20,000 nt of DNA from Chiloscyllium plagiosum (taxonomy: Eukaryota), in NCBI RefSeq assembly GCF_004010195.1, contig NC_057753.1, positions 8,051,277 through 8,071,276 of the forward strand, given 5' to 3'. Shown in pieces: positions 1 to 18,694 of this stretch. The notes under the pieces were generated by a model. The model worked only from the letters and a program-made list of their open reading frames with translations, was not told the origin of the DNA and did not search any database. A program made the translations under genes and the position numbers. Position 1 is the first letter of the stretch, and every line of letters begins with the position of its first letter.

Positions 1-21
1 CCACACACATATAAACATTTA

Positions 22-62: not shown

Positions 63-757
63 CCTCAGGCAACGCAATGCTGAATATTCCTGCTTTCTAT
101 TTATATGTTTGGGTTCTTTGGATTGGTGATGTCATTTCCTGTTGTGATGTTATTTCCTGTGGTGAAGTCACTTCCTGTTCCTTTTCTCAGAGGATGGTAG
201 GATGGTCTAAATTGATTTGTTTGTTGACAGACTTCCAGTTAGAATGTCATGTTTCTGGAAATTCTCGTGCATGTCTTTGTTTGGCTTGTCCTAGGATGGA
301 TGTGTTGTCCCAGTCGAAGTGGTGTTCATCATCTTCCATATGTGAGGATACTGGTGAGAGAGTGTCATGTCTTTTTGTGGCTAGTTGGTGTTCATGTATC
401 CTGGTAGCTAGTTTTCTGCCTGTTTATCCAATGTTTGTTATGCTCCTTGCACGGTATTTTGTAAATGACATTTTCTGTATCGTGTCTTTCAATTTCATTA
501 CCTGCATTTTAAGTGTGTTGGTGGGTTTGTGGGCTACCATGATACCAAGGTGTCTGAGTAGTCTGGCAGTCATTTCCGAGATGTCTTTGATGTAGGGGAG
601 AGTGGCTAGGGTTTCTGGACGTGTTTTGTCTGTTTGTTTGGGTTCGTTGCTGAGAAATCAGCGGGCAGTGTTCACCACAGGAAATGACATCACCGAATCA
701 AAGAAACCCAAACATATGAATAGAAAGCAGAAATTTTCAGCATTGCTTCGCCTGAGG

Positions 758-799
758 CCCAATGAAGATGTTACTTAGTAGAGTAACGAAACGTCTGGA
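758..799 (+). ncRNA. Minimal type I hammerhead ribozyme motif in the inverted pLTR (first core C mutated)
   Basis: CCCA-ATGAAGA-T-GTTACT-TAGTAG-AGTAAC-GAAA-CGTC-TGG matches the CUGANGA...stem II...GAAA...NUH layout. Confidence 0.7.
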
Positions 800-1328
800 T
801 ATGAACCTTCCTCTCAGCGAGCAAACCTACATCCAAAACCTCAACCTGAGAGACAAATTTTCTCAAAAATCCCTAACACACATACCAGTATAGACACTAT
901 AATACCGACACACAAATACTGATACACAGACACAAGTGGTAGTAAAGATACACTAAAATAAAGATACTAATAAGCACATACATCAGCTCTGTCAGCTTCT
1001 CTGACTTTTCTGCACAGTTCTTCCATTTTCGATCTTTTTGCTCATTGAGTGAGGCTGCGAATAAACATGACTGTGTATCTGAAATTAGAGCGTCCCCTTC
1101 GAGGTCACTACTCGGCTGATTTCACACATTTAGTGCAGCCCCTGATTTGTGAGAAAGAGTTCGGTGGTTAGACAAAAGTGTACATTTAAATGCGTCCTTC
1201 ATATGTCTTCATGTTACCAATGTCAGAGACAGGAACCACGTGTGTTAAATGTCCCAGAATGTATCCAGTACTTTCTCATTTTGGACTCCCTCCGTATAGT
1301 AACCGGACACAACTGTACATGCAGGAGA

Positions 1329-1557
1329 AAGTGAGGACTGCAGATGCTGGAGATCAGAGCTTAAAATTGTGTTGCTGGAAAAGAGCAGCAGGTCAGGCAG
1401 CATCAAAGGAACAGGAGAATCGACATTTCGGGCATAAGACTTTCAACAGGAATGGGGAAAAGCCCTTCCTGAGGAAGGGCTTATGCCCGAAACGTCGATT
1501 CTCCTGTTCCTTTTATGCTGCCTGACCTGCTGCGCTTTTCCAGCAACATATTTTGAA
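1329..1557. mobile_element. Palindromic non-autonomous Penelope-type (pLTR-derived) element with hammerhead motifs
   Basis: Arms at ~1364-1452 and ~1466-1554 are inverted copies, and the left arm has a ~35-nt extra tail. Flanked by ACAACTGTACATGCAGGAGA (1309-1328) and ACAACTATACATGCAGCAGA (1558-1577). Confidence 0.85.
1464..1500 (+). ncRNA. Minimal hammerhead ribozyme motif, core intact
   Basis: CTGAGGA(1469-1475)-A-GGGC-TTAT-GCCC-GAAA-CGTC(1496)-GATT. Confidence 0.75.
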
Positions 1558-1590
1558 ACAACTATACATGCAGCAGATTTCATTTCTGAC

Positions 1591-1656
1591 CCAAAGCTCG
1601 TGCTTCCAAATAAACCTGTTGGACTATAGCCTGGTGTTGTGTGATTTTTAACTTTG
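1591..1656 (+). repeat. Fragment of another abundant shark short repeat (probably pLTR-derived), truncated at its ribozyme end
   Basis: AAAGCTCGTGCTTCCAAATAAACCTGTTGGACTATAGCCTGGTGTTGTGTGATTTTTAACTTTGT resembles a common shark repeat as I recall it. Not verified by search. Confidence 0.5.
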
Positions 1657-1806
1657 TTGTATTTGATGCTGAGTTACAGAAAATGGCGTGAGAACCTTTT
1701 ACATTCCAGTGCAGAGAAATGCAATGATCTTTTTTTAAAGAGAAAGTGAAGACCTGAGGGCTGGGAAATGAGGGAAAAGGAACATTTTGATCACTGCTGT
1801 ATAAGT

Positions 1807-2127
1807 ATTAGATGAGATTAGATTCCCCACAGTTTGGAAACAGGGCCTTCGTCCCAACAATTCCACAGCGACCCTTCGAATAGTAACCCACTCAAACCCA
1901 TTTCGCTCTGACCAATGCAACTAACACTAGGGCAATTTAGCATAGCCAATTCATCTAAACTGAACATCTTTGGACTGTGGGAGGAAACCGGAGCACCCGG
2001 AGGAAACCCACGCAGACACGGGGAGAATGCGCAAACTCCACACAGACAGTCACCCGAGGCTCGAATCGAGCCTGGGGCGCTGGTGCTAAGAGGCAGCAGT
2101 GCTAACCACTGAGCCACCGTGCCGCCC
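1807..2127 (-). mobile_element. HE1-like tRNA-derived V-SINE, full length
   Basis: Minus strand has GGGCGGCACGGTGGCTCAGTGGTTAGCACTGCTGCC (A box), GGCTCGATTCGAGCC (B box), V-domain GTGGGTTTCCTCCGGGTGCTCCGGTTTCCTCCCACA and a CR1/HER1-type tail ending in AATCT-like repeats. Confidence 0.95.
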
Positions 2128-2134
2128 AATTGTG

Positions 2135-2462
2135 CACAGAATCATCGAATCAGTGTGGAAACAGGCCATCAGGATATCCACACAGACAATCCCAAGTGTA
2201 TTCCACCCGTACTCGCACCCCTACCTGATGAGTCTACGTTTCTCCAACTAATTCCCCCGACCTGCATCTCGCTGTACACAATGGGAAATTTTGCATGTCC
2301 AATTCACCTAACCTGCACATTTTTGGACTGTGTTGGTAAACCGGAGCACGTGGAGGAAACCCACAGACACGGGGAGAATATGTAAACTCCACACAGAAGT
2401 CGCCTGAGGTTGTAATCAAACCGGGGTTTTGAAACTGTGAAGCAGCAGTGCTAACCACGGTC
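2135..2462 (-). mobile_element. Second, more diverged V-SINE (HE1-related)
   Basis: Same head and V-domain (GTGGTTAGCACTGCTGCTTCACAG...TTCTCCCCGTGTCTGTGGGTTTCCTCCACGTGCTCCGG). Tail is CCTGTTTCCACACTGATTCGATGATTCT. Confidence 0.85.
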
Positions 2463-2589
2463 CTGTCCATATTCTTTTTAAGGAATGATTTCCTTAACAC
2501 GGAGAGAGCACAAAAATCTTTGCCCAGACAACTTGGATAGCGTCTCCCACCCATCCTCCTCCTCGAACCAAAAAAAAAGGTTCCGTGCA

Positions 2590-2937
2590 CTGGTTGGTAA
2601 GGTGATGAGAGTTCATTAGATTTTCAGGATACTTGTTGGAAATTTGGAATAGTGAGAATGGAGGTTAGGGAAGTTGAATGTTCATCCTGCAGAATGTGGG
2701 ATGTAAGATTTAACAGTACTGTCCCTGCTGACTGCATCTGTAGAAAGCACACTAAACGCCAGCTCCTTGAAAACTGCGTTAGGGATATGGAGCTGGATGA
2801 ACTTCGGATCATTTGGGAGGCACAGGGGGTTATTGACAGGAGTTCCCGGACGTTAGACCCACCTCAACGTAAAGAAAGTAGGTAGATTACCGTCAGTGGA
2901 CAGAAAGGGAACCTTCAAATAGTGCAGGCATCCCCTT
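2590..2937 (+). mobile_element. CR1 LINE 5' fragment: ORF1 N-terminal zinc finger/leucine zipper
   Basis: ORF 2652..2885 reads VECSSCRMW...CICRKHT..QLLENCVRDMELDELRII. It is homologous to 10716-11060(+) and 12560-12900(-) in this window. Confidence 0.85.
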
Positions 2938-3170
2938 CAACAACTCCACAAAGACTGGAAACTCAACAGCAAGGCACCCTTTCTTTATATATGGAGAATT
3001 CTTGCCTCGAGTACTGCCTTATTCAAAGTCAGGTTTCAAACTGACAGAACGTCTGATATTTCTCCTTTCATCTGTCAGCCAGGGCTCCTTAACTGGACCT
3101 GATTAACTGCCCCAATCAGGGAACTCATATTCTATGAGGCCCAACTATCTGACCAGTTGCAATCGCTACC
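2938..3170 (-). mobile_element. Probable solo LTR of an LTR retrotransposon
   Basis: About 230 bp with CCAATCAGGG/CTGATT(GG)-like boxes, a minus-strand ATAAAG near the 3' end and degenerate TG...CA-like ends. It resembles a shark LTR family as I recall it. Confidence 0.5.
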
Positions 3171-3559
3171 ATTTCGCTTTGTCGAAATCATAAAGATAGC
3201 TTTATTCACAATGACTGCGTTCTTTTGATAATTTGTCCTAACCTTACACTTTATAGAACTGATGGAAGGCTGAATATTACGTAAAAGCATAACATAGTGA
3301 GGAGGAACAACACTGAGCAATTCAAGTACTCAAGCCTCCTCCCCCATTTGTTACGGTCATGGCGAGTATCATCCTGGCCTCAGCTCCTTTTCACTGTCAA
3401 TTCTGCATGACCATTCATCCACACTATGTCTCAGCATGCTCTGGACGTTATAGTAGTGAATTCTACAGCTGTTTTAAATCTGCTGCACTCCATTCTAAAA
3501 CTATGAACTCTTGCCCTACTTCACCCACAAGAGATACGTTTCACTTTACATCGAGATTT

Positions 3560-4560
3560 TCAACCGATTTGATATACCTCGATTACAAACCCTCCCCCAC
3601 CCAAGTTCTTCTGAATTCCGGAGGGTACAGCTCCAAACTGCTCAATTTCACTTCCCTGGACAAACTGAATATATTTGGAATCAATATAGAGAATGCTATT
3701 TGAATTGCCTCCACTGCATCTGCATCCACACTGAAGTAAGGACACGAAACCTGTTCACAGTATTCCTGTGACGGGTTCACTCGTGTTTTGTACATATGCA
3801 GCAGCCCTTACCTACATATATGCTCCATAGCTTTCGAAATAAGTACAAATATTTCACTTGCTGTACTTATTACCGTTCCTGCCGGCATATAGTTTTTTTT
3901 TTGGCAATTCATTCAAGGGGCAAACAGATATCTCCACACCAACAGAACCTGAAATTTCTGTCTATTTCGATAATAATTTGCTTTTCTATTTCTCCAAGCA
4001 AAGTGGCTCACCTGATTCATAACACACAATTTCACTATGAAACGCCGGCCAGTGCACCTAATCAATCTATTGCCCTTGTTAGATCCACTTATTTATTCTT
4101 CAAAACTTGCATCTGCTCCTATTTTAGTGCCACATGAAACTTTGGCAATAGTACTTTCTATGCTCTTTTCCAAGTCATTAAAATAGGTTACTACTGGTGG
4201 GGGCCTCAACATTGAACAATTTAGTACACTAATCTCGCCAACCAGAATAAAAATTATGTGTGTCTGTATTTTGTGGTTTAGCCAATCGTCCACCCATGCT
4301 AATAAATTGCCTTAACGCTATGTGGTGTATTAGCATGCGTATGAATCTTTTGTGGATAACTTATCCAATGATTTTCGGAAGTCCAGTTTCACAATATCTG
4401 CACAATATCATTGGCACAACTTGCTTACAACAAATTTAACGAACTCACGAAAATTATTCAAGCACGATTTACCTTTCATAAAATTATGCTGCCTGTGATG
4501 GGCGGCTGTTTTGCCCTTGCAAATGTCCTGTTATTAACTCCTTAATAATGAATTCTGATG
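3560..4560 (-). mobile_element. Old, heavily degraded CR1 ORF2 (RT) fragment
   Basis: Minus-strand motifs are QHNFMKGKSCL (~4490-4460), DIVKLDFRKSLDK (~4400-4360), YFNDLEKSIESTIAKVSCGTKIG (degenerate YINDL..FADDTK) and EYCEQVSCPY (degenerate YCVQFWSP). Confidence 0.85.
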
Positions 4561-5012
4561 ACTTGCCTTCAGTCCAAATAGTTTGTTCAATGCCATTTAT
4601 TCCCTGGTGATATAAGGTATTCTAAGATCCTGCCCTTCTCTCGCTCTGTGCTCCCTTCTAGATCCTATGTATTGGCGACAAAGGGGAAGTAAGGATCTGA
4701 TCTGACTGACCTGGAAGAGATTTCAGTGGCTAAACGGCCGCATTGTGTTCGTTTTACAGAAACTCGGTTGACTGGATGTCCTTCTCGTGTTTACGCATTA
4801 TATTCTCGAGGGCATGAATGGTCCACTCTGGTTCCTGTGTGAAAGGATCGAAATCTGATGGAATTGTGATTTTGCTACGTAGAATTTTGTGGGGCGGAAG
4901 GGAATTGTAAAGTTCCCCCACAGCACACTTGAGGCACTCAACGTTTTGTTTTGCATCCGTGATTGTCAGAACCAGCTAGCACTGGCTGGGAAACGGGGAT
5001 ATGTTCAATATC

Positions 5013-5031
5013 TGTGCGTGTGTGTGTGTGT
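5013..5031. repeat. (TG)n microsatellite followed by a G-rich tract
   Basis: tgtgcgtgtgtgtgtgtgt. Confidence 0.85.
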
Positions 5032-6809
5032 TTGGGGGGAGGGGCGGGGAGGTGAGGGGCATGGGCGTGAGAAGAATGCCATCAGTGGAATTTGGAGAAA
5101 GGAAATGAGCGAATTCGGCATTAGTGCTATTTTACCCAACATACCTTAATATTTTCAGAGGGAAATTTTGTATGGAATTATTATTTTTAAATTAGTAGAA
5201 TTGAGATTATTGCTGCCAGAACGTCACATATACTCGAAGATCCTAAATGCATAGACCTGGAACAACCACCAGAAAGTGAAACCAAGCTTTCAATTTAAAG
5301 GAAGACAATAATATTAAATCATAACAAACAGGCAAAACATTATAATGAATTGAAATTACTGCAAAGTTACTTGACAGAAATACGTTACCGCTATAATTAC
5401 CTAAAAAATTTCAATATCTGTATTTCTATGTTATCTCAGTTTCAGATTTGGAATCATAACTGAACGTGAGTTTATTGGTACTGCCCCCAAAACGACAGGA
5501 TTTAGCTTCAGAATTCAGAGACCATCGGAAACAACAGAGGAACATTTGCATTCGTCCGAAATCAATCGAATTGCTTGAGCAGAAGACCAGGGAAAAAACA
5601 ATAATGTGAACGTTTGAGATCAGCAGTACTAATGTGTGAGTTTACATTTAATTAAACAGAAGAACCAATCAACTTAATTATTTCACTTTAAAGCACGAAT
5701 ATTTTGAATATTCACACGTTTAACAGAGCGATGGGAGATCCTTTGGAAACGTTAAATTGGAAGAGTGTGATGCTTGAGGAATTATGTGTCCAGATGTTTC
5801 TATTATCATCCTCATCGTCGCCAATTCAGCCAAAACCGTGGAATCTGTGAAAATACAGTGCATAATTATATATTTACACCCTAATCCATTTCCTTGAACT
5901 ATTACTTTGTTAGCTGCTTTCCTAGCGGAAGTATAATTTTTAAAATTGTCATTTCTGTGTAAAAATCTCTGCGTTTTATTATTTCGATACATGTGCTTCC
6001 TAAGGACAGGACATATTTTCCCAGTTGCAAAATACGCAGCTTTTATTCATAGTTTATTGGACATTAGTATCTCATTGATCATTTGAGGTAATTGGTAACA
6101 AATTATACAACCTTAAAGACATTTCACTATTACAGTATAGGCTCTAAGAGCCACGTGTCACAAAACCTGAGCCATCATTGAGTAAGAACTAATATCAGTC
6201 AACTTTCATCTTGGTTCATCACTGTGAACGTCATCATTGGTACGTGAAGAACATCATTTTTTCTCTTCAATAGCAATGCTTCATCGAAATTCTGGTTCTT
6301 CGAACATACTGCAAACCGTTGTTCTCCAACGTGTCCCTTAAAATAACGTTGACTTTACTTTGAGCGACATACTGCAGTTTGAATTTGTCCTGTAATGTTT
6401 GCACATTTCTTCATGTGCCTCTCTTGCTTCGCCTTCCCGTTTTCTCGCTATCCATATACGTGTATCTGCGTTAATAGGGGCATCCTTGTGCCATGAATAT
6501 CTGTGTTTCCTCAACGCCAGCGTGTGTATGAATCCTTGAATGAATTTCATCATGTTTAGTGCCTGATTAATAATTATTAATAGATGTGTGAATGTTCATA
6601 AATCTACAGCTATTGAAATCCATACTATTTTGCTTCTTAACTGATGTGGAATATATTCACAGTGAAGACCCAAGAAAATGTAAACGTATTGACTTGTGCA
6701 GTTTCTTTTGAAGAAGTTAAAGAGAGCAATTTAAATCGAGAAGACAGGCAAGAGCACAACAGGGAATGAGAGACGTAGCATGAATTATACTGCCCTTGTT
6801 CGGACTTGA

Positions 6810-7600
6810 GGTGCAAGGCAAATGACCTCGGAGAATGGTTGGGAACATGGGACTGGGATATCATAGATATTACAGAAACACGACTGAGGGACGATCAGGG
6901 CTATCAACTTAATTTTCCAGGGTACAGATGCTATGGAAGGAGAGAAGCCAATGCAACAGAACAGGCGAAGTGTTATTTTTATTTGGGCAAATATAAGCCG
7001 CAGTGCTTCGAGAATAAACTTCTGGGGGATCATCGTGTGAACATATATTGGGGGAACTACGAAGAAAAAAGAAGTTAATCTAAGTCATGGAATTATATAT
7101 TGCTCCTCAACGCTCTCCCAATAGTTAGTGGGAAATTGAAAAACAAATATTGAGGGAGATTGCACACAGTTTTAACAGCAGTACCATGTAAGAGTAGGGA
7201 ATTTAACTTTCAAACGTGGACTCGGACTGTGGCAGATTTAATGACCTAGATAGGGCTAAGTTGTTTCAGTGTGTACTGGAAAACTTTCTCAATCAATATG
7301 AAGGCGACCCTACGAGAAAAAATACTCAACGTTTTCTTGGGAAATAAGGCAGGAAGAGACGAATAAATGGTCAATATTTTGAACAAGTGACAATAATTAT
7401 ATCAGTTTAAAAATAGTGAGGGAATTGGATATGCCTCGTCCACAAGTTGATGTTTTAAATTGTGGCAGGTTCAATTTTAATGGTATTCGGCAGGAACTTC
7501 CAAAAGATGATTGGAAGGAGCCATTCGCAGGTAAAGTATACCGTGGCCGGTGAGAGGTTTTCAAAACCAAGGCAACGCGTTTGCAGATCAGTTATTTCCT
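6810..7600 (+). mobile_element. Old CR1 ORF2 N-terminal AP-endonuclease fragment
   Basis: KANDLGEWLGTWDWDIIDITETRLRDDQGYQLNFPGYRCYGRRE, followed by VGEFNF (GDFN-like) and further degenerate EN motifs. Confidence 0.88.
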
Positions 7601-7619
7601 CTCGTTGCGAAGTTTAATG

Positions 7620-7880
7620 TTGCACAGACTACTTTTGCGTTGGTAGATAAAGTGTAGGGGATCGAGGTAGGTTGGGAGACCAGAGTTGATGTGGGCCTTT
7701 AACCAGCCTCGAGATACACATCATGATTATGACCGTCTAAACCACTGAGCGATCGTCATTAAGGCACGTTGCAGGTGATTTATTAGGTACTGGATAATGA
7801 TGGTCTTCTATAAGAATGTGGGGACTTCGGCTTATTGGAAGGAGTGTATGTAATATCAACTGATATTTCTATTATCAACT
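7620..7880 (-). mobile_element. Rex1/Babar-like LINE RT fragment
   Basis: Minus strand with frameshifts reads VPTFL*KTIII(P)VPNKSPATCLNDDRSVV*TVIIMMCISRLVK(A)HINSGLPTYLDPLHFIYQRKSS. This matches the Rex1-type 'CLNDYRPVALT..MKCFERLV...LDPLQFAY'. Confidence 0.8.
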
Positions 7881-7959
7881 GCGATGTGTAAAGTGCCAGA
7901 AGATTGAAGATTGGGTAATGTGCAATTATTTAAGAAATTTTGCGAGGAAAGCCGCTGAA

Positions 7960-8242
7960 CTACAGTGGGAACAGTGTTTAGCACTGCCGCCTCACATCAC
8001 CAGAGTCCCGGGTTCAATTCCCGACTCAGGCAACTGTCTGTGTGGATTTTCCAAATTCTCTCCGTGTCGATGTGGGTTTCCTCCCACTGTGCAGGTGAGG
8101 TGAATTGGCCATGCTAAATTGCCTGTAGTGTTCAGTGAACGCATAAATGTAGTGGAATGGATCTGGGTGGGTGCTGTTCGGAGGGTCTGTGTGTACTTGG
8201 GCACAAGGGCCTCTTTCCACGCTGTAAGTAATCTAATCTTAA
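7960..8242 (+). mobile_element. HE1-like V-SINE with an internal deletion
   Basis: TTAGCACTGCCGCCTCAC...GGGTTCAATTCCCG (B box)...GTGGGTTTCCTCCCAC...GAATTGGCCATGCTAAATTGCC...tail TAATCTAATCT. Confidence 0.92.
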
Positions 8243-8256
8243 CTCATTCAAAGATC

Positions 8257-8478
8257 AGTGAGCCACATGACATTGTTGAGTAAGTTGTAGGAGGTGATTC
8301 TAAAAGACAGGTGCAATTGGAAAGAAAAGGAATGGTTGGGGATTGTCAGGACTGTTTTGTGCGACTCATAAACTGATTTTTTAAAAAAATGTGGTCAAAA
8401 AGATTAATGAAGGCAGAGCGATTGACATGTGACACATGGACTTCAGTTGGCCATTTGACAATGTACCGCATAATGAGT
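8257..8478 (+). mobile_element. Old CR1 RT fragment, ending at the VPH motif
   Basis: KKINEGRAIDM*HMDFSWPFDNVPH is a degenerate DEGRAVDVVYMDFSKAFDKVPH. Confidence 0.82.
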
Positions 8479-9158
8479 ACATGGAACATGAAAATACAGA
8501 ATACAACTTAGAACAGGCCTTTCGGCACAGGATGTTGTAACGCGGATTATTCCTCATCTAAAATAAAGTAAGCTAATATCCGTACACAACTCTTAACTCA
8601 CCGCTGTCCATCTGCATGTCCAGCAGTAGCTTAAATTTCCTAATGACTCTGCTTCCACCACTATCGCTGACAACGCATTCCATGCATTTACAACTCTCTG
8701 CGTAAAGGACATTCCTCTGACGTCTCCACTATACCAATCTCCTACTATCTTAAAACGACAACCACTTGTGCCAGTCAATGCTTCCTGGGGAAAGGTCTGT
8801 GACTATTATTCTATCCATGCTTCTCATTAGCTTGTCTACCTCGATCAGGTCACGTCTGTCCCTCCTTCTTTCCAGAGAGAAAGGTCCGAGCTTATAGACA
8901 ATATCCAATAGACAATAGGTGAGGAGTAGGCCATTCTGCCCTTCGAGCCAGCACCACCATTCATTATGATCATGGCTGACCATCCTCAATCGGAATCCTA
9001 TTCCTGCCTTATCCCCATAACCCTAGTTTCCACTATCATTAAGAGCTCTATCCAACTCTTTCTTGAAAGTATGCAGAGACTTGGCCTCAACAGCCTTCTG
9101 GGACACAGCATTCCACACACTCACCACTTTCTGGGTGAAGGATTTTCTCCTCAACCTC

Positions 9159-9195
9159 AATTCCTGAAGAAGGGCTTATGCCCGAAACGTCGATT
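9159..9195 (+). ncRNA. Minimal hammerhead ribozyme motif, core intact
   Basis: AATTC-CTGAAGA(9164-9170)-A-GGGC-TTAT-GCCC-GAAA-CGTC(9191)-GATT. Confidence 0.78.
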
Positions 9196-9257
9196 CTCCT
9201 GTTCCTTGGATGCTGCCTGACCTGCTGCGCTTTTCCAGCAACACATTTCCAGCTCTG
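9160..9257 (+). mobile_element. Single-arm copy of the hammerhead-bearing short element
   Basis: Near-identical to 1466-1554. Flanked by CTCAACCTCA (9150-9159) and CTCAATCTCA (9258-9267). Confidence 0.88.
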
Positions 9258-10539
9258 CTCAATCTCAGTCAACCTTAGCCAACCTCTGGTCGGAAGACAA
9301 GCCCTCCAGTCCAGGCAGCATCCCACTAAACCTTCTTTGCACCCTCTTTAAAGACTCCGTATTTTTCATGTAATGGGGCGATCCGAACTGGACACAATAT
9401 TTCAAGCGTGATCTCACCAGGGTCTTGTGGAGCTGCAGCAAAACCTTGCGGCTGTTAAACTCGATCCCCCTGTTGATGAAAGCCAAAACACCATATCCTT
9501 TCTGAACAACCCTATCGACGTGGGTGGCAACTTTGAGGGATCTATGTACTTGCACACCCAAATCCCTCTGTTCCGCCACACTGCCAAGAATCCTGTCTCT
9601 AATCCTATATTCAGCATTCGAGTTCGACCTTCCAAAATGCATCACTTCGCATTTATCCAGGTTGAATTCCATCTTCCATTTCTCAGCCCAGTTCTGCTTG
9701 CTGTCTATGTCATGCTGCAGCCTGCAATAACCCTCGGCACTGTCAACGGCACCTTCAATCTTTGTGTCATCGGCAAATATACTAACACACCCCTCAAACT
9801 CCTCATCCAAGTAATTTATAAAAACTACAAAGAACAGAGGCCCAAGAACAGACCTCTGCGGGACAACACTCACCACTGACCTCCAGGCAGAATACTTTCC
9901 ATCTACAACTACTGTCTGCCTTCTGTCAGCCAACTAGTCCTGAATCCAGACAGCCACATCCCCCTGTATCGCATACCTCCTGACTTAAGAATGAGCCTAC
10001 CAAAGGAAACCTTATCAAAAGCCTTGCTGAAGCTTATATACACCATGTTCACTGCTCAAACTTCATCGACCGTTCTCGTTATCTCCTCAAATTACTCAAT
10101 AAGATTTTTTAGGCATGACCTGACCCTCACAAAGCCATGTTCACTGCCTTTAATCACGCTATTACTTTCCAAATAGTCATAAGTCCTATCCCTCAGAATT
10201 CTTTCCAAAACTTTGCCGACCACAGATATAAGACTGATGGTTTGTAATTGCCAGGGATTTCTCTACTCCCCTTCTTGAAATGAGGAACAACATTTGCCTC
10301 CCTCCAATCGTTTGCTACGACTACCGTGGAGAGTGAGGAAACAAAGATCGTCGCCAACGGCTTAGAAACCTCCTTTCTTGCTTGCCGGAGCAACTTAGGA
10401 TACATCTGGTCTGGCCTTGGCGACTTATCAATCTTAATGTTCGTCAAAGTTTCCAGCATATCACCTTCATCAATCTTGATCTGTTCAAGCCTGCTTCCAA
10501 GCTCCTCAAAGTTCTCATTCACAACAAGGTCCCTTTCCC

Positions 10540-10566
10540 TATATATATATATATATATATATATAT
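10540..10566. repeat. (TA)n microsatellite
   Basis: Perfect TA run close to the CR1 breakpoint. Confidence 0.95.
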
Positions 10567-10659
10567 CTCCCACCCGCCCTCCTCCTCTAACCTAGTTAAT
10601 ATGGTAAGGTTCATTCTAAACTTCCTCTATTGAATATAAGCTTGTTATTAATTTTATAG

Positions 10660-11611
10660 CAACTTGAATTAAGCTTTCTACTTTAGTACTGAGTGGGTAT
10701 TCAGATAATTGGGGTATGGATGCTAGGGCAGTTGCCTGCTCCTCCTGCAGAATGAGGCAGGTGAGAAACATGGCATACGTCTCCGCTGCTACATCTGCGG
10801 GAAGTGCACCCAACTCCAGCTCCTTGCAAACCGTGTTAGGGAATTGGAACTGGAGTTGGAGCTGGATGAACTACGGATCATTCGGGAGGCTGAGGGGCTA
10901 CTTGAGAGGAGTTACCGGGAGTTGGTCACTCCTAAGGCTCAGGACAAGCATAGATGGGTTACAGTTAAGGGGAGGAAAGGGAACAGACAGACAGTGCAGA
11001 GATGCCCTGTGGACATTCCCCTCAGCAATAACTATACCGTTTTGGATACTGCTGGGGGGATGACCTACCAGAGGAAAGCCATAGGAGTCAGTTCTCTGGC
11101 ACTGAGCTTGACACTGTGGCAAAGAAGGGAAGGGGGCAGAATTGGAAAGTACGCGTGGTAGGGGACACGATAGTTAGGGGAATCGACAGAAGATTTTGTG
11201 GTCAGGATCGGGATTCCCGGAAGGTATGTTGCCTCCCTGGTGCCAGCGTCCGGGACGTCTCTGATCGGGTGTATAAGGTTCTAAAAGGGGAGGGCGAACA
11301 GCCAGAAATCCTGTTACGTATTGGCACTAATGATACAGCCAGAAAAAGGATTGAGGATATAAAAAGTGATTTCAGGGAGTTAGGATGGAAGCTGCAAAAC
11401 AGGACGAACAGAGTAGTGTTCTCTCGTTTACTACCAGTGCCACGAGAGAGCGAGGGGAGGAACAGGGAGCGGGCGCAGTTTAACAAGTGGCTGCGCAGCG
11501 GGTGTAGGAGGGAGGGCTTCAGATATGTAGATAATTGGGATACCTTCTGGGGAAGGTGGGACCTGTACAAGAAGGACGAGTTGCATCTGAACTGGAAGGG
11601 AACCAATGTCC
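10660..11611 (+). mobile_element. CR1 ORF1 segment (zinc finger/leucine zipper plus SGNH/GDSL esterase), frameshifted, with no ORF2 or 3' end
   Basis: AVACSSCRM..., RELELELELDELRIIREAE, then ORF 11116.. VVGDTIVRG, CCLPGASVRDV, IGTND, DELHLNWKG (SGNH blocks I, II, III and V). Confidence 0.93.
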
Positions 11612-13230
11612 TCGTTTCTGTAGCTTTGATGAACTCTCTGATTAGTAAGGTTACTCCTCTGTTCTTTTTCCACCCTCCCTGTTCTTCTTAAACGTTCTAA
11701 AGCCTAGAACGTCGAGCAAACATTCCACTCCCTGTGAAACCCATGTCTCCGTTATGGCCGGAATATCACAGTTCCAAGTTCTGATTTACGCTGTAAGATC
11801 ATCACTCTTAGTTCGGACACTCTTGCATTAAAATAGACAAAGTTTAATGGACCCCTTTGTTCCATTGCATGACAAACCTTCCCGATGGATTCACTACATA
11901 CTGTCACTTCCCCATAGCTAACTATCCCCCGTTTCAGATATGTAGCTCTAGTTCCCACACCCCCGCCCCCCGCCAAACTAGTTGAAACTCTCGCGAACTA
12001 CACGAGCAAATCTCCGAACCAGGACATTTGTGACCCTCCAATTCAGGTAGAACCGGTCCTTCATGTACAGGTCCCAACTTCCCCACAAGGAATCCTAATG
12101 ATCTAAATATCTGAAGCCCTCCCTCATGCACCAGCTGCACAGTTACGTGTTAAGCAGCACTCGCTGCCTTTTCCTTGCCTCACTATCTCGTGGCACAGGT
12201 AGCAATCCTGAGAAAACCAATCTACTCGTCCTGCTCTTCGGCTTTCAACCTAGCTCTCTGTAGTCACTTTCTAAATCCTGAATTCCTTTCCTGGCTACAT
12301 CATTGGTGCCAATATGTACTACGATTTTTGGTTTTTCACCCTCCCCTTCGGAATCCTGTAAACCCATTCGGCGACATCCTGGCACCTTACAACTGGGAGG
12401 CAGCATACCTTCCTGGAGACCCGTTCCTGATCACAAATTCTCTTGTCAATCCTTCTAAATATTGAGTCCCCTACCACTAGCGCTTTTCTATTCTCCTCCT
12501 TTCCCTACTGAGCCTCAGTACCAGGCTCAGTGCCAGACACCTAAAAACTATGGCTTTGCCCTTGTACGCCATCCCCACCCGCAGTATCCGAAACGGTATA
12601 TATATTACTGAGGGGAACGGCCACAGGGGATCCCTGCTCTATATTTTGGTCCCCTTTCCTCACCCTGACTGTAACCTATCTGTCCTTATTCTGCAGCTGA
12701 GGATTGACCACCATCGTGTACGTCCTCTCATTTTCTCCCTCAGCCTGCCGGATGACCTGTAGTTCATTCAGCTCCAGCCCTAGTTCCCTAATTCTGTTTT
12801 CGAGGAGCTGGAGTAGGGTGCAGATGTGGTCGGCAGAGACATGTATCGTGTCTCTCACCTGCCACATTCTACAGGAGGAACAACTGCCCTATCAGCCATA
12901 TCTCACTAATCTGAAAGCCCACAAATGACTAAACAAGGAAGACTAAACAAGAAAAGAAAAAGAACTCAGAAAACCTGTAAACTTACTTAGTTTACAGAAC
13001 CTAAGCATGGTTCGCGGGGATGGGTAGAATGGTGGCCCTACGGTGTATAGTTTCGGGTTTAGATTTCACCTACTAAAAAGTTTCCCGACAGACCTAATTT
13101 CTCTATGCACTCTCTCCTCACAGCTCTGTTCAAAGTGAAGGCCCGACTGTCGAGGTAAGTCCCTTCATAAGTGGGAAAAGCTGAAGTATTCGGCAGCCCT
13201 CGTTTCTCTCCGCCCTCACTTCTCGCCTGT
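11612..13230 (-). mobile_element. CR1 5' part: 5' UTR, ORF1 and start of the ORF2 endonuclease
   Basis: 12676..12867 reads MWQVRD..LLENRIRELGLELNELQVIRQAE. The esterase C-terminus lies near 12050-12130. ORF2 starts LNFVYFNAR...AITETWVSQG...GVTLLIREFIKATET and ends at 11612. Confidence 0.9.
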
Positions 13231-14350
13231 CTGTTCAACATGGAGGTTTGTATCACATGGATTCCGAGGATCGCCAACGAATTGCATGCAAAATTGACAT
13301 TGTAGAAGACGCAGGACGGAGTTAGAGGATTATTGTTTCGACTCGATATCTGTGACCAGCAGTGTACCACAATAATTGTCTTTGGGTCCATTGTTGCTCA
13401 TCATTTTTACAAATGATTTAGATGGGAATATTGAGGGATGGTTTGCAAGTTTGTGGATGACACCGAATTCTTGGTCCAACGAATAGTTAAGAATGTTTTC
13501 TAACACGACAACGGGATCTTTATCAACTGGGTCAGCTGGCCGAGAAATGGAAAATTGAATACAAGTCAGATAAACGCGAGGTGTTGAGTTTTGGTAAGAC
13601 AATACAGAGGTAGATTTACACAGTTAATTCTAATTTCTCGCGAACTTTGTTGATCAGAGAGTACATGGGTCACGGTAACATAGTTCCTCGAAAGTGGCAC
13701 AGTAATTAGACGGGGTGGTGAATAAGGCGTTTGACATGCATCCCTTCATCATTGAAATCATTGAATACACCAGTTGGGACGTCATGAAAGATATCGGTAG
13801 GGTCAACCTGGAATTCTGCGACTATTGCTCGCCATGCTGTAGGAAGGACGTTACGATACTGGCAATTGTGCAAATATATTTTCAAGGATGTTACCAAGAC
13901 TGGAAGGATTGTGCGATAAGGACAGCATAGATAGTTTGGAACTTTTCTCTCCCTGGATGGTAGGAGTTTGAAGGTTGACTTTTTTCATGATTATAAATTC
14001 ATGAGTGGCACAGAGAAGGTGAAAGACGAAAGTGTTCTCTCGAGGGTAGGGAAACCAAAACTGGAGGACATACATTGAAGATAAGGGGGAAAGCATTGAA
14101 ACAACTTCAGCGGCGATTTTCTGTTTTAACACAGAGCGAGGTGTGTGCATGAAGCCAGCTGTAAAAGTAAGTGGAGGTGGAGGGGAAAATGCAACATGAA
14201 AAAACCTTTAGGCATGTACATGGATCAGAAGGGTCTGCAGTGATTTCGGCAAAACACTGACAAACGTGACTAGTTCAGTTTATAAAACCTGGCCAGCAAG
14301 GCCAATTTGAACTGAAAGTCTGTGTCCAAAATGCATGGCTATGCGTCAAT
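13231..14350 (+). mobile_element. Old CR1 RT to 3' end, continuing 8257-8478
   Basis: SVTSSVPQ*LSLGPLLLIIFTNDLDGNIEG, KFVDDTE, VVNKAFDM, LEFCDYCSPCCRKDV, and a degenerate 3' UTR near 14290-14350. Confidence 0.87.
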
Positions 14351-14354
14351 AAGA

Positions 14355-14495
14355 TGTATATGTGACTGTGTCCGTGGATATGTATCTGTATCAGTGTGTC
14401 TATTTACATCTAACGATGTCTGTGTTCACGTGTACACGTGTGATTCTTTACTGTTGGTGACTATCTTTATGTGTGAATTTGTATCTGTGTGCATT
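14355..14495. repeat. Degenerate TG-rich low-complexity tract
   Basis: Repeated tgtg/tgta/tgtc units. Confidence 0.6.
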
Positions 14496-14728
14496 TCCTT
14501 CTTACGTCAGGGTGTTTATTTTTATTATTGTTTGAATTTAAAATAATTATCAATAATGCATCTGAAAATATTGGTGTCATGCATATAGAAGTTTTTTGTG
14601 TGATATTCAAAGATAAAAACAAAATTATCGAAAGACCCGACTCATCGGATGAGCCTTTAACAACAGAGGGATGAAACCATATGATATAACCTGAATTCAT
14701 TTTTATCACGCGTATCGTTTTGATGATG

Positions 14729-14754
14729 TGGTGGTGGTGGTGGTGGGGGTGGTG
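14729..14754. repeat. (GGT)n microsatellite
   Basis: tggtggtggtggtggtggggtggtg. Confidence 0.85.
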
Positions 14755-14899
14755 TCAATGTTTACAGGTAATTAACAGAAATATGATTATGCAAAAGATT
14801 TCACAAATACCATGTTGCCTGTACTTGGCCCATGCCCTTCTCGTCCTTTATTTTTTATCACACTAATGCGACTTGTTCTATCCATGTCTTTCGCCAGTG

Positions 14900-15956
14900 T
14901 ATTTAATGTATTTAATTATACATCAAACGGTTTCTTATCGTTTTCTGTTTCATTTGCCTCGAACTCAAGCTGCTTACATTTCAATTGTATTTCATTTAGC
15001 TCGAAAGATTTCAAGCATTTCCAGAGAAGTTAAATGCCGAGCAATTGCTATAATTGTCTTTCCGTTTCTCACACAAAAATGTAACTCCAACTTCAGCTTT
15101 TCTGCCAAATTCCAGGAGCTTTGCCTTGTTCACCTTCTGTATAACCCCCATAGTCCCTTCTTCCATACCCAGATAACTCTTAGGGAGTTGAAGAGTCATT
15201 ATTGCACGAAGCACTGTTTAACTAAGTGAGTTCAACACACAGAATAAAAGACTCCAACACTTATCACTCGCTGCATTTGAGTCCAACAATCCTAATCCCA
15301 AAATGAAACTGAACAATAAATCCCACCAAGAACCTTCAATCTGTTATGGAGCGGGCCAGACCCCCTCAAAACATTGTGAGAAGGAAACCCAGACCTTAAT
15401 TGTTTTTCTATTTGTTTAAGCAGATATAAATTGGATACTCCAGGACTGAGTCAGTTGGTCAAACCACTTGGCTCTAAACAAAACAGAAATGTTGAATGAA
15501 TATAAATAAAACACGAACAAAAGAACACAGAATTTAGAATAGCTTTACTGATTGGAAAAATCCAAACGACTCCATCTCAACTTAATGAAGCTGTTGCATT
15601 TCCCCCAACATGCTACAAACGCACCCGTGGCAATAGGTAAATTCGAACACAAGTCCTTACCGCTCCGAGAGAACAACTTCCAAAGAGAGTTCAGGGAGAA
15701 AGCTAATCAGGAAGCATGGATTTCCTTCTCAGTGCAGCTGATTCTCTGTTGCCAGCAGTTTATTTTGACTGCAGGCAAATATTAAGACAATTCGAGCACA
15801 AAACAAAACCTGAATTGGCAGAACTGACCATTCCCGTGTCATTGTTCAAAATAAGCTTTTCCAGACAAATTGTCATCTCCACACTTAGGATCACTCTTGA
15901 AAAGAAAATGCACAGAATAAGTTAATGTGGCAGCATAATCACAGTGGTTACTGACA
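14900..15956 (-). mobile_element. Gypsy-type LTR retrotransposon 5' remnant: LTR 15342-15956, PBS ~15320-15339, degenerate gag start at 15199
   Basis: The LTR has TGTCA...TAACA termini on the minus strand. It is followed by GATTGAAGGTTCTTGGTGGGAT, which resembles the tRNA-Pro PBS TGGGGGCTCGTCCGGGAT. Next comes MTLQLPKSYLGMEEGTMGVIQKVNKAKLLE and a coiled-coil-like IQLKCKQLEFEANETE. Confidence 0.72.
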
Positions 15957-16147
15957 AATAATAGCACGTTGGCTTTTCCATTGTTATTTCGTAATGCCAC
16001 ACAATTGCATTTTTCCTCTCCCGATCCAATATTAAATCTGACCATCGCATTCATCACAGCTCGAAATTACAAATCGTCCCCATCATTCTTCACTGCCAGT
16101 CTATTTTTTCAAAAATTGACATGGTTACTGAACACTTCGTTGTCGAA

Positions 16148-16345
16148 GAATATGGTGCTGGAAAAGCAGAGCTTGTCAGACAGCATCCGAGGAGCAGGAG
16201 AATGCACGTTTCTATCATAACTTCTTCCTGCTGAAGAGCTCATGTTCGAAACATTCCATCCCCTGCTCCTGGGATACTGCTTGACCAGCTTTGTTTTTCC
16301 AGCACCACACTCTGCGACCCTGATCTTCAGCACCTGCAGTTCTTT
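16148..16345. mobile_element. Older palindromic hammerhead-bearing element, flipped relative to 1329-1557
   Basis: Left arm TGGTGCTGGAAAAGCAGAGCTTGTCAGACAGCATCCGAGGAGCAGG is inverted relative to right arm CCTGCTCCTGGGATACTGCTTGACCAGCTTTGTTTTTCCAGCACCA. The centre reads CTGCTGA-A-GAGC-TCAT-GTTC-GAAA, and the right arm carries the CAGCACCTGCAG tail. Confidence 0.82.
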
Positions 16346-16999
16346 GCCGATTTCACATCTCACTGGAATGCACAAACCCGTTTCCAGTTCGGATCATTAT
16401 TCATTGCATTGGTTAGAAATCATTGTGATATTTTGTGCCAAATGTCCCCAACAGTTTACCTGAACGTTAAAGAAAGTTATTTTGCGTTCATTGTTGACAG
16501 TTCAGAACAGTTACTTTTGGTGTGCTTGCACATAGTTCACTGTATTTAAATTCAAAACAAACTGATTAATTTAATTAGATGTGATGCATTAATCCTATGA
16601 CAGATTCTGCATTGGTGATCAAGTGTACTGTACATAAGGTAAAAACAAGGGCTGCAGATGCTGGAAACCAGATTCTAGATTAGAGTGGTGCTGGAAAAGC
16701 ACAGCAGTTCAGGCAGCATCCGAGGAGCAGGAAAATCGACGGTTCGGGCTAAAGCCCTTGCACATAAGCCTATTTCACATCTCACTGGAATGCACAAACC
16801 CGTTTCCAGTTCGGATCATTATTCATTGCATTGGTTAGAAATCATTGTGGTATTTTGTGCCAAATGTCCCCAACAGTTTACCTGAACGTTAAAGAAAGTT
16901 ATTTTGCGTTCATTGTTGACAGTTCAGAACAGTTACTTTTGGTGTGCTTCCATATAGTTCACTGTATTTAAATTCAAAATAAACTGATTAATTTAATTA
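16346..16999. repeat. 232-bp direct duplication (16346-16577 and 16768-16999)
   Basis: Ungapped at offset 422, with about 5 mismatches by eye. Confidence 0.95.
16639..16759 (-). mobile_element. Single-arm sister-subfamily element truncated inside the hammerhead
   Basis: Minus strand starts AA-GGGC-TTTA-GCCC-GAAC-CGTC-GATTTTCCTGCTCC. Flanked by GTACATAAG (16630-16638) and GCACATAAG (16760-16768). Confidence 0.85.
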
Positions 17000-18694
17000 T
17001 AATTTCATGTATTCTGCAGAGTTCCATGCTCGTTTTGCTGATTTAACAGCGGACAGGATTACTGTCACAACATTTCTTGCTGCTATTCCCATTCTTGATC
17101 AGCAGTTGTAGCTTTGTGTGGACAGGTCCAATTGCTTCGATCTCAGCTGACAGTATTACCATCCAAGTCAGGTCTCAGAATTTAAACCTATCCTGATAAA
17201 TGTTTATGTTTATGTAATTAGGCACTCATTTAAAATATACAAAAGAATGTGACAAAGTATTTGCATCAAAGTTTGCATTTAGTACAGTGAAGATTCAACC
17301 CTTTCCCCAGTCATGTTCTTCACAAACAGTCAGATCCCCTTATCACCAAGTTGACCTTCACTTTAAAATTTCTGACTCAACGTATCGTGTCCTTCTGATG
17401 AATTTCTGCTTATTCGCCAACGTAACATTCCCTTTGCTTGCGTCTCTTTTCGAGACACGGGCATTCAGAGCAACTCCAGGACTTTCTCAATGGATACAGA
17501 AAAAAACGTGACTTTTCCCAACTCTGTCTACGGGGCCTAATAACAGACGTTAAGAAATCTATTCACTTCTGAAGGTAACTGGACTAAGTAAACTAAAATG
17601 CCTTTCTGTGACATCGAACCTTTGCCACTGAATGAGCCTAATTTCGGTTGATGTTAGTGTCACTTTCTGAGTTCATGGACATTAAATTGCAAGTCGTTTC
17701 TGTTATCCAGTCGTTTAGCTGACGTCGCTTAATTTCTTCAATATGTTGTTATAACTCAGTTCAAAGACAAAATATTTCCTGACTCCTGACAACATCAAAT
17801 CACATTGAAAGAATAAATACCAAAAGCTAGGCATCTCTCCTTCAGAACTAAAGTTTATAAATATTATTATTAATAAGAATAATATTATTAATAATAATAG
17901 CAAAAACGATATTGTACGAAGTACATTCATCACAAACTTGGCTGCAATTATATTCAGTATTGAGAGATCCAATTCCATGTCAAACATACTGCCTTCAATG
18001 CAGAATCGTTAAATCCAGAGCATAAAGCTTCAATTGCAGAAATACGCTTGGGAAAGCATACAGTCAGCCTTGACATGTCTAAGTCAGCATGATTAGTATT
18101 TTGTTGGATAGCGCGACTGAATATATTCCATTCGTCAGATGAAGCCAATTCAAAGCAGTTGCATTGAATTTCTGCAGATTGATTTTGATCAGATTGTAAT
18201 CACTCTGTTGAAGTAAGATTCACCAGCTTTCTGTCCTTGGTTGTAACACCAGTCTGAGCATAATTAGTTCATGCACACTTCTTCACAAAGAAAAAACACA
18301 TTTTCTGCCAGAACAATCGTCTCCACGATTGAGATGTAAAGGAAATACTCAACAGTTCAGGAAACACTTATAGCCATAGGTGGGCCCAGATAGTGTGTCT
18401 GTTTTGAGCATTTTTTAATATTTCAACTAACTGTATTCCCAATGCAAAAGTAAATGTGTATGGACAGGTGCAATACAGAATATTCTCACGTCAAATTGTG
18501 ACATATTATTGTTACAATTATTTCTATTTACCTCAAAAGTGGAATCATCTTCATGGAATCTGTGTCCTTCGAAGCATTTTCTGTTCATTCATTACTGAGA
18601 GCGTTGCCCTCGGCTGGCTTCTTAGAATTTCCCAGTCTACTTGGAACAGCTAAGGAGCAAGGTCCAAATGTTGTTTTTTAACATACTTTCGAAG

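Follow-up and report, generated by a model that had tools for sequence, protein, structure and literature searches.

Short hammerhead-bearing repeats of Chiloscyllium plagiosum as probable truncated ends of a Penelope-like retrotransposon family

A 20,000-nucleotide stretch of contig NC_057753.1 of the shark Chiloscyllium plagiosum (the window) carries four insertions of a short repeat built around a hammerhead ribozyme motif. Does such a unit move on its own, or is it the end of a longer Penelope-like element (PLE) that was copied incompletely? An earlier interpretation, made from the letters of this DNA (the sequence-only reading), had proposed a high-copy, self-moving ribozyme retroelement mobilised by PLEs. 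We followed its claims through the anatomy of the four copies, the conservation of the motif and the family in public data.

Anatomy of the four insertions

Sequence comparison within the window agreed with the sequence-only reading that the four insertions belong to a single repeat family and lie roughly at the positions claimed. For copy 3 the claimed end at 16345 was kept, and the start was moved from 16148 to near 16143. The parts of the copies are the following.

1309-1328, plus strand: left target-site duplication of copy 1 (20 bp, 2 mismatches against 1558-1577)
1329-1457, minus strand: inverted arm of copy 1, with decayed hammerhead, downstream body and tail
1458-1482, no strand: junction of copy 1, an additional 10-bp perfect palindrome at the fold-back centre, from fold and sequence
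1465-1557, plus strand: direct arm of copy 1, without tail, minimal hammerhead core intact at 1469-1496
1558-1577, plus strand: right target-site duplication of copy 1
9150-9159, plus strand: left target-site duplication of copy 2 (10 bp, 1 mismatch against 9258-9267)
9160-9257, plus strand: copy 2, a solo unit without tail
9258-9267, plus strand: right target-site duplication of copy 2
16143-16224, minus strand: inverted arm of copy 3, old, without tail, beginning beyond the CUGANGA box
16225-16345, plus strand: direct arm of copy 3, with tail (about 16323-16345) and a decayed core from 16228
16629-16638, plus strand: left flank repeat of copy 4 (10 bp, 1 mismatch against 16759-16768; 7 exact)
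16639-16759, minus strand: copy 4, with tail, of a subfamily with a divergent 3' end

Two of the four, copies 1 and 3, form head-to-head palindromes with arms that are 88% and 77% complementary, and the arms of the same palindrome have subfamily letters in common. Copy 1 folds into a single hairpin (-159 kcal/mol), and its junction palindrome pairs 1460-1469 with 1473-1482. This palindromic layout is absent from the sequence-only reading. A tail of about 26-31 nt is present on three of the six arms, namely one arm of each palindrome (1354-1329 in the inverted arm of copy 1) and copy 4; copy 2, which was inserted within a minus-strand LINE remnant that we take from its peptide to be CR1-like, has none.

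Flanking direct repeats of 20, 10 and 9 bp had been claimed for three copies, and we scored the flanks against 4989 random 30-nt pairs. The repeats of copies 1 and 2 stood: the 20-bp repeat of copy 1, with its 2 mismatches, was equalled by 0 of the 4989 pairs, and copy 2 shows either 10 bp with a single mismatch or 14 bp with two (p=0.012). That of copy 4 is weak (7 bp exact, or 10 bp with one mismatch; p=0.044), and no target duplication was found in the flanks of copy 3 (p=0.90 against the 4989 pairs). The final 5 bases of 1309-1328 also match the end of the family tail.

Head-to-head arms, a tail on one arm and target duplications of variable length bear out a PLE-type insertion. The step from direct repeats to autonomous movement as a retrozyme-like unit did not hold, since every target-primed insertion, even a truncated one, leaves a target duplication. 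A PLE insertion with an inverted pLTR, a 31-bp tail on one arm, an 8-10-bp target-site duplication and a junction palindrome has been described (PMC3846280, Arkhipova et al. 2013), and PLE copies show 5' truncation, an inverted 5'-truncated copy and a 30-40-bp tail at one end (PMC8557442, Craig et al. 2021). The copies in the window resemble these endonuclease-bearing PLEs (PMC3846280, PMC8557442) in their head-to-head arms, one-armed tail, junction palindrome and variable target-site duplication, but no reading frame remains between or beside the arms and the 5' ends are tightly clustered at helix I.

The hammerhead motif and its conservation

The pattern CTGANGA-N{4,30}-GAAACGTH matched twice in the window (1469-1496 and 9164-9191) against 0.01 expected, and 0 of 200 shuffles reached two, which bears out the intact cores claimed at 1469 and 9164. 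Numbered after the consensus of minimal hammerheads (min-HHRs) in the PMC4209133 supplement, copy 2 consists of the helix I 5' strand (9160-9163), CUGANGA (9164-9170), a bulge (9171), helix II (9172-9175 with 9180-9183), GAAA (9184-9187), the palindromic CG (9188-9189), U16.1 (9190), C17 at the predicted cut site (9191) and the helix I 3' strand (9192-9195). The corresponding cut in the direct arm of copy 1 is predicted after C1496. The bulge and the G10.1-C11.1 pair demanded by the min-HHR core are present. There is no helix III loop; the palindromic 15.2-16.2, with A-C-G-U at 9187-9190 and 1492-1495, would allow a dimer. Helix I has three of its four pairs in copy 2, with a single U-U mismatch, and 52.9% of its cells are paired over the arms; a variant at 9194 that completes it makes up 26% of the depth in run X4 and 3.7% in run X5.

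The motif fits the published consensus, and the sequence-only reading was right to call it a minimal hammerhead of type I such as PLEs carry. Like the min-HHR of metazoan PLEs (PMC4209133), it has CUGANGAH, one bulged base, G10.1-C11.1, GAAAN, a loopless palindromic 15.2-16.2 and opposite-strand pairs, and its incompletely paired helix I may correspond to the short closing helix of that consensus; its helix II of 4 bp is at the short end of the range. A lone copy, which has no helix III, should not be expected to cut as a monomer, and in the palindromic copies the long predicted hairpin would bury the motif.

Contrary to what had been claimed, the four insertions do not all share a unit starting at CTGANGA. 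The box is missing from copy 4 and from the left arm of copy 3, both of which begin beyond it, and A6 is altered in two further arms, the left one of copy 1 and the right one of copy 3. The whole core is kept in two of the six arms, the other four being decayed or cut: the inverted arm of copy 1 (core 1449-1422) has A6, helix II and the palindrome all altered, the direct arm of copy 3 has A6 and the palindrome altered and an A-U at helix II pair 2, and the 5' end of copy 4 falls inside the hammerhead, with no CUGANGA and with A15.1 altered. The loop II variants TTAT, TCAT and TTTA are as described. The claim that stem II varies while staying paired comes down to a single compensatory event, pair 2 being G-C in four of six arms and A-U in both arms of copy 3, but the chance of such a double transition at the observed divergence is about 10%, and no whole-structure measure of covariation over the six arms stood out from shuffled data, since between 61 and 462 of 500 shuffles did as well.

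The expected conservation of the core was supported only against part of its surroundings. In the DNA contigs, with variation counted at 3% of depth or more, reads less than 82% alike excluded and X4 represented by the rows listed, which are all but at most four, no variation was seen at the 17 positions of core and helix II outside CpGs, against four of the five free positions (p=0.0007). The downstream positions varied at 6 of 46, so that the core shows no significant excess of conservation over them (p=0.18). The variants sit at N7 and loop II, and the core changes at CpGs only, where variants make up 6-12% in the DNA contigs. The parent elements would therefore keep the motif while the inserted copies decay.

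At E values up to 5, Rfam gave nine matches in the window, none of them to a hammerhead; all were hairpin-type and below gathering scores. Models that expect helix III, absent from the min-HHR, would explain the missing hammerhead match. These hairpin matches and the palindromes of copies 1 and 3 are also what would be seen if the repeat were a MITE-like DNA element, or a chance hairpin, with the hammerhead match incidental. This explanation is largely refuted, and we give it almost no credence: the one-sided tail makes the arms asymmetric, solo arms insert alone, the length of the target duplication and the inversion points vary, and a motif that fits the min-HHR consensus varies at N7 and loop II and is spared in its core. 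The MITE and chance-motif readings were rejected on the arm asymmetry, the solo insertions and the core-sparing variation.

Abundance and boundaries of the copies in public data

As proposed, the family is very abundant in public runs. The contigs aligned to the unit numbered 93,769 in X4, 75,671 in X5 and 3,082 in X15, counts that favour copies with unique flanks, are not copy numbers and leave the share of longer copies unreadable. The RNA reads derive from a poly(A) single-cell library; they showed no accumulation of ends at the cut site, although a library of this type would not reveal one. Loose ends behind 9257 yield the same tail as in the window (317 reads, agreement 0.93), and the 3' variant of copy 4 recurs among loose ends behind 9244; at least three subfamilies differ at the 3' end.

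The start of the copies does not coincide with the cut site but lies about 28-32 nt upstream, and their 5' ends concentrate at 9160 in helix I (977, 954 and 77 contigs, and 623 reads). The 30 letters preceding 9160 agree poorly (0.34-0.45), and the loose-end consensuses there have the same four final bases in all four runs, preceded in three of the four, by eye, by a GCACAC- or GCCCAC-like stretch. Part of the family continues upstream, as seen over about 20 letters. Opposite-strand joints in the contigs of three runs and in RNA reads tie 9159-9174 to many partners (9171-9214), so the inversion points differ from copy to copy.

These boundaries bear on the proposal of a non-LTR retrozyme, in which dimeric hammerheads would cut the transcripts of tandem units and the monomers would be made circular before reinsertion. 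Animal retrozymes form head-to-tail tandem units and circular RNA (PMC7229834, Cervera and De la Pena 2020), and both monomer derivatives and retrozyme families in the one chondrichthyan genome analysed, with a mean consensus of 363 bp, have been reported (Li, Clavereau and Pollet 2026, bioRxiv 10.64898/2026.07.22.740005). Our units are likewise non-coding, carry a type I hammerhead and are related to PLE pLTRs, and head-to-tail joints (9255 back to 9160) do occur in X4, X5 and X15. Such joints are few, at 9, 6 and 1 among all aligned contigs of the three runs; the copies are about 100-130 nt, solo or head-to-head, and none of the four in the window is tandem. None of the six arms begins at the cut site (the equivalent of 9192), head-to-head pairs are unable to form the dimeric ribozyme in cis, and the motif is minimal, whereas retrozymes typically carry the canonical hammerhead with its tertiary contacts (PMC7229834). 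We consider a retrozyme very improbable. The rare tandems, the starts some 30 nt upstream of the cut and the upstream continuation therefore point to 5'-truncated PLE ends rather than to the retrozyme-like unit of the sequence-only reading, against which the palindrome-plus-tail anatomy also speaks.

The occurrence in shark was borne out by a copy within a RefSeq C. plagiosum protein. A protein search with the open frames over the unit gave two matches, each to a FUBP3-like isoform into which a copy has been exonised; this copy begins at the same codon as copy 2 and is flanked by a repeated short peptide. Two further word-based protein searches gave no match.

That exonised copy, the sharp 5' boundary with low upstream agreement in four runs, the target duplications of solo copies, the 3' subfamilies and the lack of a frame tied to the unit would all suit a SINE-like non-autonomous PLE derivative. 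Here the template would be a pLTR-only RNA of 100-130 nt from helix I, with its own source copies, mobilised in trans by PLE protein; pLTRs are sufficient in cis for such mobilisation (PMC3846280). The upstream letters common to part of the family and the differing starts of the arms in the window speak against it, and the boundary is equally explained by a preferred stop or by the pLTR start of the full-length element itself. We regard this derivative as unlikely. Its fullest form is a rather doubtful prospect: a vertebrate SINE-like element made from a PLE terminal repeat alone, present at many sites as ADAR-edited hairpins, a shark counterpart of inverted Alus. If true, an RNA of 100-130 nt with its 5' end fixed at helix I would be copied in trans by PLE protein, fold-back insertions would make many copies perfect hairpins and so a source of double-stranded RNA edited by ADAR, and editing at core A14 and A15.1 would silence the ribozyme. 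Editing of hairpin copies is in itself a possible side lead.

Parent element and known relatives

We think it probable that the units are dead-on-arrival stubs of pLTR ends, left by an endonuclease-bearing Penelope-like retrotransposon family of at least three subfamilies. Its parent RNA would carry a minimal type I hammerhead in the terminal repeat; the motif is observed, and its link to a parent is inferred. The PLE reverse transcriptase/GIY-YIG protein would nick DNA and prime cDNA downstream of the cut site, at a distance of about 65 or about 95 nt, and these two priming sites would give the two observed end classes, without or with the tail of about 26-31 nt, by a mechanism modelled on PMC11167929. 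Synthesis would pass the uncut hammerhead and very often halt at or just within helix I, where the 5' ends are seen to pile up; the stop may reflect the point at which the copied RNA itself starts, or a splice boundary like that of D. virilis. Direct end joining could then yield solo copies such as 2 and 4, and fold-back or a template switch head-to-head copies such as 1 and 3, and the target would be duplicated over a varying length in the process; these products are observed and their chemistry is presumed. Selection would preserve the motif in the parents only, and inserted copies would decay, CpGs first, which is the pattern seen. The two 3' end classes past the hammerhead and the uncut RNA template resemble those of endonuclease-bearing PLEs (PMC11167929, Frangieh et al. 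2024). Against the stubs stand the sharp pile-up at 9160 with low upstream agreement, which fits a discrete short template and would not arise from random truncation, and the fact that the lone PLE frame of the window is of a different family.

No PLE frame tied to the unit was found by word-based protein searches and an HMMER scan, in collections ill-suited to an animal repeat. The one HMMER match (P0003) was rejected as an unrelated tandem-repeat peptide. DNA pattern scans gave 0 and 0 matches in metagenome contigs, 0 and 0 in prokaryote genomes and 1 and 0 in viral contigs, and the viral locus (L001) was discarded as a chance match with only a 19-nt pattern in common. The sequence-only reading had itself stated that its novelty would be undone if the copies were 5'-truncated ends belonging to an autonomous Penelope family; this is the likelier case, although the autonomous partner was not found in these collections. 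Similar shark ends may follow Neptune-type frames. The family is likely to have a repeat-library entry, because PLEs of the whale shark are reported to be expanded (bioRxiv 10.1101/443036).

The kind of element is already known, since a 2014 study described minimal hammerheads in the ends of PLEs, for the most part in solo or opposite-strand remnants. Most of them are reported to stand alone and to be "probably related to truncated PLEs", and others to form opposite-strand pairs 100-700 bp apart (PMC4209133); solo motifs number about 4,000 in coelacanth and 9,000 in Xenopus (PMC4209133, Cervera and De la Pena 2014). The abundance here appears far higher, with the proviso that contig counts are not copy numbers. 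In the portion of the PMC4209133 supplements covered, supplement file 2, part 2, holds no shark row, and "shark", "Callorhinchus" and "Leucoraja" do not occur. In the PMC8557442 supplement a search by term turned up no shark entry, no description of a shark PLE hammerhead was found in the open-licence literature, and full-text search of that literature with five short family motifs returned no paper. What the family adds is scale and statistics, namely tens of thousands of distinct insertions that share a tight 5' boundary at helix I but differ in where they are inverted. Such insertions form a natural data set on how PLEs complete insertion and on the purpose of the hammerhead.

A second PLE trace lies upstream of copy 1.

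1-850, minus strand: unrelated Poseidon-like PLE remnant, with a broken GIY-YIG-like frame to about 660

It was rejected as a member of the same family, as it has no BLAST match to the short units. Pfam returned nothing meaningful for three fragments of it, and its frame clusters with GIY-YIG at 0.85 in Atlas, which we treat as a lead only. The remnant has an inverted terminal repeat (22-147 against 672-798), a hammerhead-like motif on the plus strand at 762-795 with C3 altered, and a second, decayed one on the minus strand near 57-25. It is the sole PLE frame in the window and an in-window case of similar PLE anatomy.

Four insertions of one family and their hammerhead core

Repeat comparison within the window gave four insertions of one family, which occupy 651 bases (3.3% of the window) and carry six arms.

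Insertions of the family, from repeat comparison within the window
Copy 1: 1329-1557, two head-to-head arms
Copy 2: 9160-9257, single arm
Copy 3: 16143-16345, two head-to-head arms
Copy 4: 16639-16759, single arm

The hammerhead pattern was matched exactly at two places, 1469-1496 and 9164-9191, where 0.01 was expected from 200 shuffles of the window. In both intact cores CUGANGA is followed by a single bulged A, helix II (4 bp, closed by a 4-nt loop), GAAA and C-G-U-C; a helix III loop is absent and A-C-G-U is palindromic. The short helix I is interrupted in copy 2 by a single U-U mismatch. Both cores agree with the minimal type I hammerhead consensus in a passage of Cervera and De la Pena (PMC4209133). 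The Rfam search of the window matched no hammerhead family. The minimal hammerhead of Penelope-like element (PLE) type proposed in the sequence-only reading is a real feature. That reading also had all four insertions begin at CTGANGA, which was too strong: they belong to one family, but the core is whole in only 2 of 6 arms, since A6 is altered in the copy 1 left arm and the copy 3 right arm, and copy 4 and the copy 3 left arm begin beyond the CUGANGA box.

Palindromes, tails and target duplications

Copies 1 and 3 each consist of two arms placed head to head as a palindrome, with a 26-31-nt 3' extension (tail) on one arm only, an anatomy that the sequence-only reading had not described; the tail is present on copy 4 and absent from copy 2. 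An additional 10-bp palindrome lies at the centre of copy 1, which is predicted to fold as a single hairpin (-159 kcal/mol) with the hammerhead motif buried. Subfamily letters are common to both arms within a palindrome, which therefore derive from one template. The anatomy of copies 1 and 3 (inverted arms, tail on one, junction palindrome) is that of rotifer Penelopes, for which sections of Arkhipova et al. 2013 (PMC3846280) describe an adjacent inverted terminal repeat (pLTR), an optional 31-bp tail on one inverted arm, target duplications of 8-10 bp and palindromes at the junction. Part of Craig et al. 2021 (PMC8557442) presents the inverted copy plus tail as general to PLEs.

Flanking direct repeats of 20, 10 and 9 bp had been claimed for three copies. 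That of copy 1 was strongly confirmed (20 bp, 2 mismatches; as good in 0 of 4989 random pairs), that of copy 2 fairly well (p=0.012 vs random pairs) and that of copy 4 weakly (p=0.044 vs random pairs). No flanking direct repeat was found for copy 3 by the same comparison, and for this reason a local rearrangement may have put new sequence in place of its right flank; alternatively, two haplotypes may have been merged in the assembly. A direct duplication of ~245 bp (98%) occupies 16346-16587, directly after copy 3, and 16768-17009, directly after copy 4.

We consider it probable that the insertions derive from an autonomous PLE family as end stubs: target-primed reverse transcription would start at one of two sites, synthesis would traverse the uncut hammerhead and halt near helix I, and the insertion would be finished by direct joining or by fold-back. 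Frangieh et al. 2024 (PMC11167929) trace the two tail ends to two separate sites, both downstream of the hammerhead, at which reverse transcription begins; the template is mainly uncut RNA, and mutation of the hammerhead does not abolish insertion in vitro. The earlier proposal that the unit moves on its own gives way to truncated, folded-back PLE ends as the better reading, rather than a self-moving ribozyme element.

The family beyond the window and its 5' boundary

The copy 2 stretch was wholly or partly present in 20 of the 24 sequencing runs listed. Four of these runs were aligned to 9110-9310 at 82% likeness, with 93,769, 75,671 and 3,082 aligned contigs in the DNA runs X4, X5 and X15 (totals that do not equal copy numbers) and 2,951 reads in the RNA run X21. 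These data show that the family is very abundant and present in more than one organism. A protein search found two RefSeq FUBP3-like isoforms from Chiloscyllium plagiosum into which a family copy has been exonised; the family therefore occurs in a bamboo shark. At the C-terminus of XP_043576351.1, the last ~40 residues of the predicted isoforms come from this copy, whose first codon is that of copy 2 and which has a 4-residue peptide repeated on either side, the pattern expected of a target duplication. The exonised copy may be a prediction artefact.

Among the rows of loose ends listed (24 of 632), 5' ends were concentrated at 9160 (977, 954 and 77 contigs; 623 reads), 4 nt 5' of the core and 32 nt 5' of the predicted cut site, and agreement upstream was only 0.34-0.45. 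Many copies therefore begin directly at helix I. By eye, the upstream consensuses of the four runs have identical last four bases and, in three of the four, a similar short stretch (GCACAC- or GCCCAC-like) just before, so some copies continue upstream; contig counts, biased to copies with unique flanks, are no gauge of the share of longer copies. In the same rows the 3' ends formed three variants (copies 1 and 2, copy 3, copy 4), and 317 reads contained the tail sequence (agreement 0.93).

The sharp 5' boundary is unlike the outcome of random truncation and counts against the end-stub reading, as does the failure to find a PLE frame joined to the unit in protein searches or in scans of metagenome, prokaryote and viral DNA. 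The boundary could coincide with a splice boundary or with the point where transcription of the pLTR itself begins; in D. virilis, the 5' end of helix I is where the intron stops (PMC4209133). The tight bounding at helix I would also suit a SINE-like family, in which the boundary marks a short independent pLTR-only template, and so would the lack of a joined PLE frame; we hold this alternative to be unlikely. Apart from the link to a frame, the features that could be tested match those of an endonuclease-bearing PLE at its hammerhead-carrying end. Shark ends of like kind probably follow Neptune-type frames.

Opposite-strand joints connected 9159-9174 to many partners within 9171-9214, and the 9160/9171 joint, of copy 3's type, was found in 18 RNA reads and 3 + 6 contigs. 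Head-to-tail joints (9255 to 9160) were found in 9 (X4), 6 (X5) and 1 (X15) contigs. A non-LTR retrozyme, with a monomer bounded by the cut site and derived from tandem arrays, is very improbable, as the units differ from it in both tandem arrangement and boundary. The few head-to-tail copies would satisfy the working definition of retrozymes in part of a 2026 preprint (bioRxiv 10.64898/2026.07.22.740005) if both units keep the core. Excerpts of that preprint tie vertebrate retrozymes, including one chondrichthyan, to PLE pLTRs, and the present family may be among its chondrichthyan families.

The kind has been known since 2014 as solo and opposite-strand minimal hammerheads of truncated PLEs: parts of PMC4209133 report thousands of solo motifs "probably related to truncated PLEs", along with pairs on opposite strands, families in fish, coelacanth and frog, and a tested motif without monomer cleavage and with low dimer cleavage. 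PLEs are expanded in the whale shark, according to a portion of bioRxiv 10.1101/443036. Searches of an open-licence library turned up no description of a PLE hammerhead from a shark.

Sequence variation, possible editing and neighbouring repeats

Of the 40 variant rows listed, out of 52, 37 were typed, leaving out the edge rows 9159, 9249 and 9255, and a position was scored as varying at >=3% of depth in a DNA run. Non-CpG positions varied at 0/10 in the core and 0/7 in helix II, counts for which all 25 X5 places are among the rows listed, with some X5 differences uncounted, and two G>A and two C>T places of X4 lie outside them and could be in the core. The excess conservation looked for held against the free positions (N7 and loop II, 4/5 varying, p=0.0007 vs core plus helix II) but not against downstream non-CpG positions (6/46, p=0.18). 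All six motif CpG positions vary, at 6-12%, G12 and C17 among them. Our reading is that parent elements vary where the ribozyme tolerates it and that inserted copies decay without selection. Covariation in helix II amounted to one event, G-C to A-U at pair 2 in both copy 3 arms, and did not rise above shuffles.

A>G and T>C made up 20 of 49 listed places in X21 vs 4/25 and 6/25 in DNA contigs (p=0.03), a comparison in which contigs lose rare variants and the DNA is from a different animal than the RNA. At 9171, 9186, 9187 and 9220, A>G reached 9-17% in one read orientation and 1-6% in the other (DNA 0.1-2%). Strand-biased A>G / T>C excess in X21 was seen at 9171, 9178, 9186, 9187, 9220 and 9232, including core A14 and A15.1. 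The pattern looks like ADAR (A-to-I) editing of hairpin copies, as a lead only; against it, some non-editing changes are strand-biased as well, and T>C at 9211 and 9246 is biased in the wrong direction. A SINE-like pLTR-only family seeding edited hairpin RNA is more doubtful still than the SINE-like template itself.

Other repeats also lie in the window. A second PLE remnant at 1-850, presumably Poseidon-like, has a GIY-YIG-like frame (minus strand), an inverted terminal repeat and a hammerhead-like motif at 762-795 with an 8-bp helix II, and a decayed minus-strand partner near 57-25; it had no BLAST match to copies 1-4 and was rejected as a member of their family. At 10669-12946, a LINE ORF1/esterase-like remnant, which we take to be CR1-like, is matched by its own reverse complement in an inverted arrangement ~2.3 kb across, with arms 73-78% complementary. 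A SINE-like repeat, by our assumption HE1/V-SINE-like, has three copies (1930-2130, 2283-2460 and 7970-8140), two in one orientation and the third in the opposite one.
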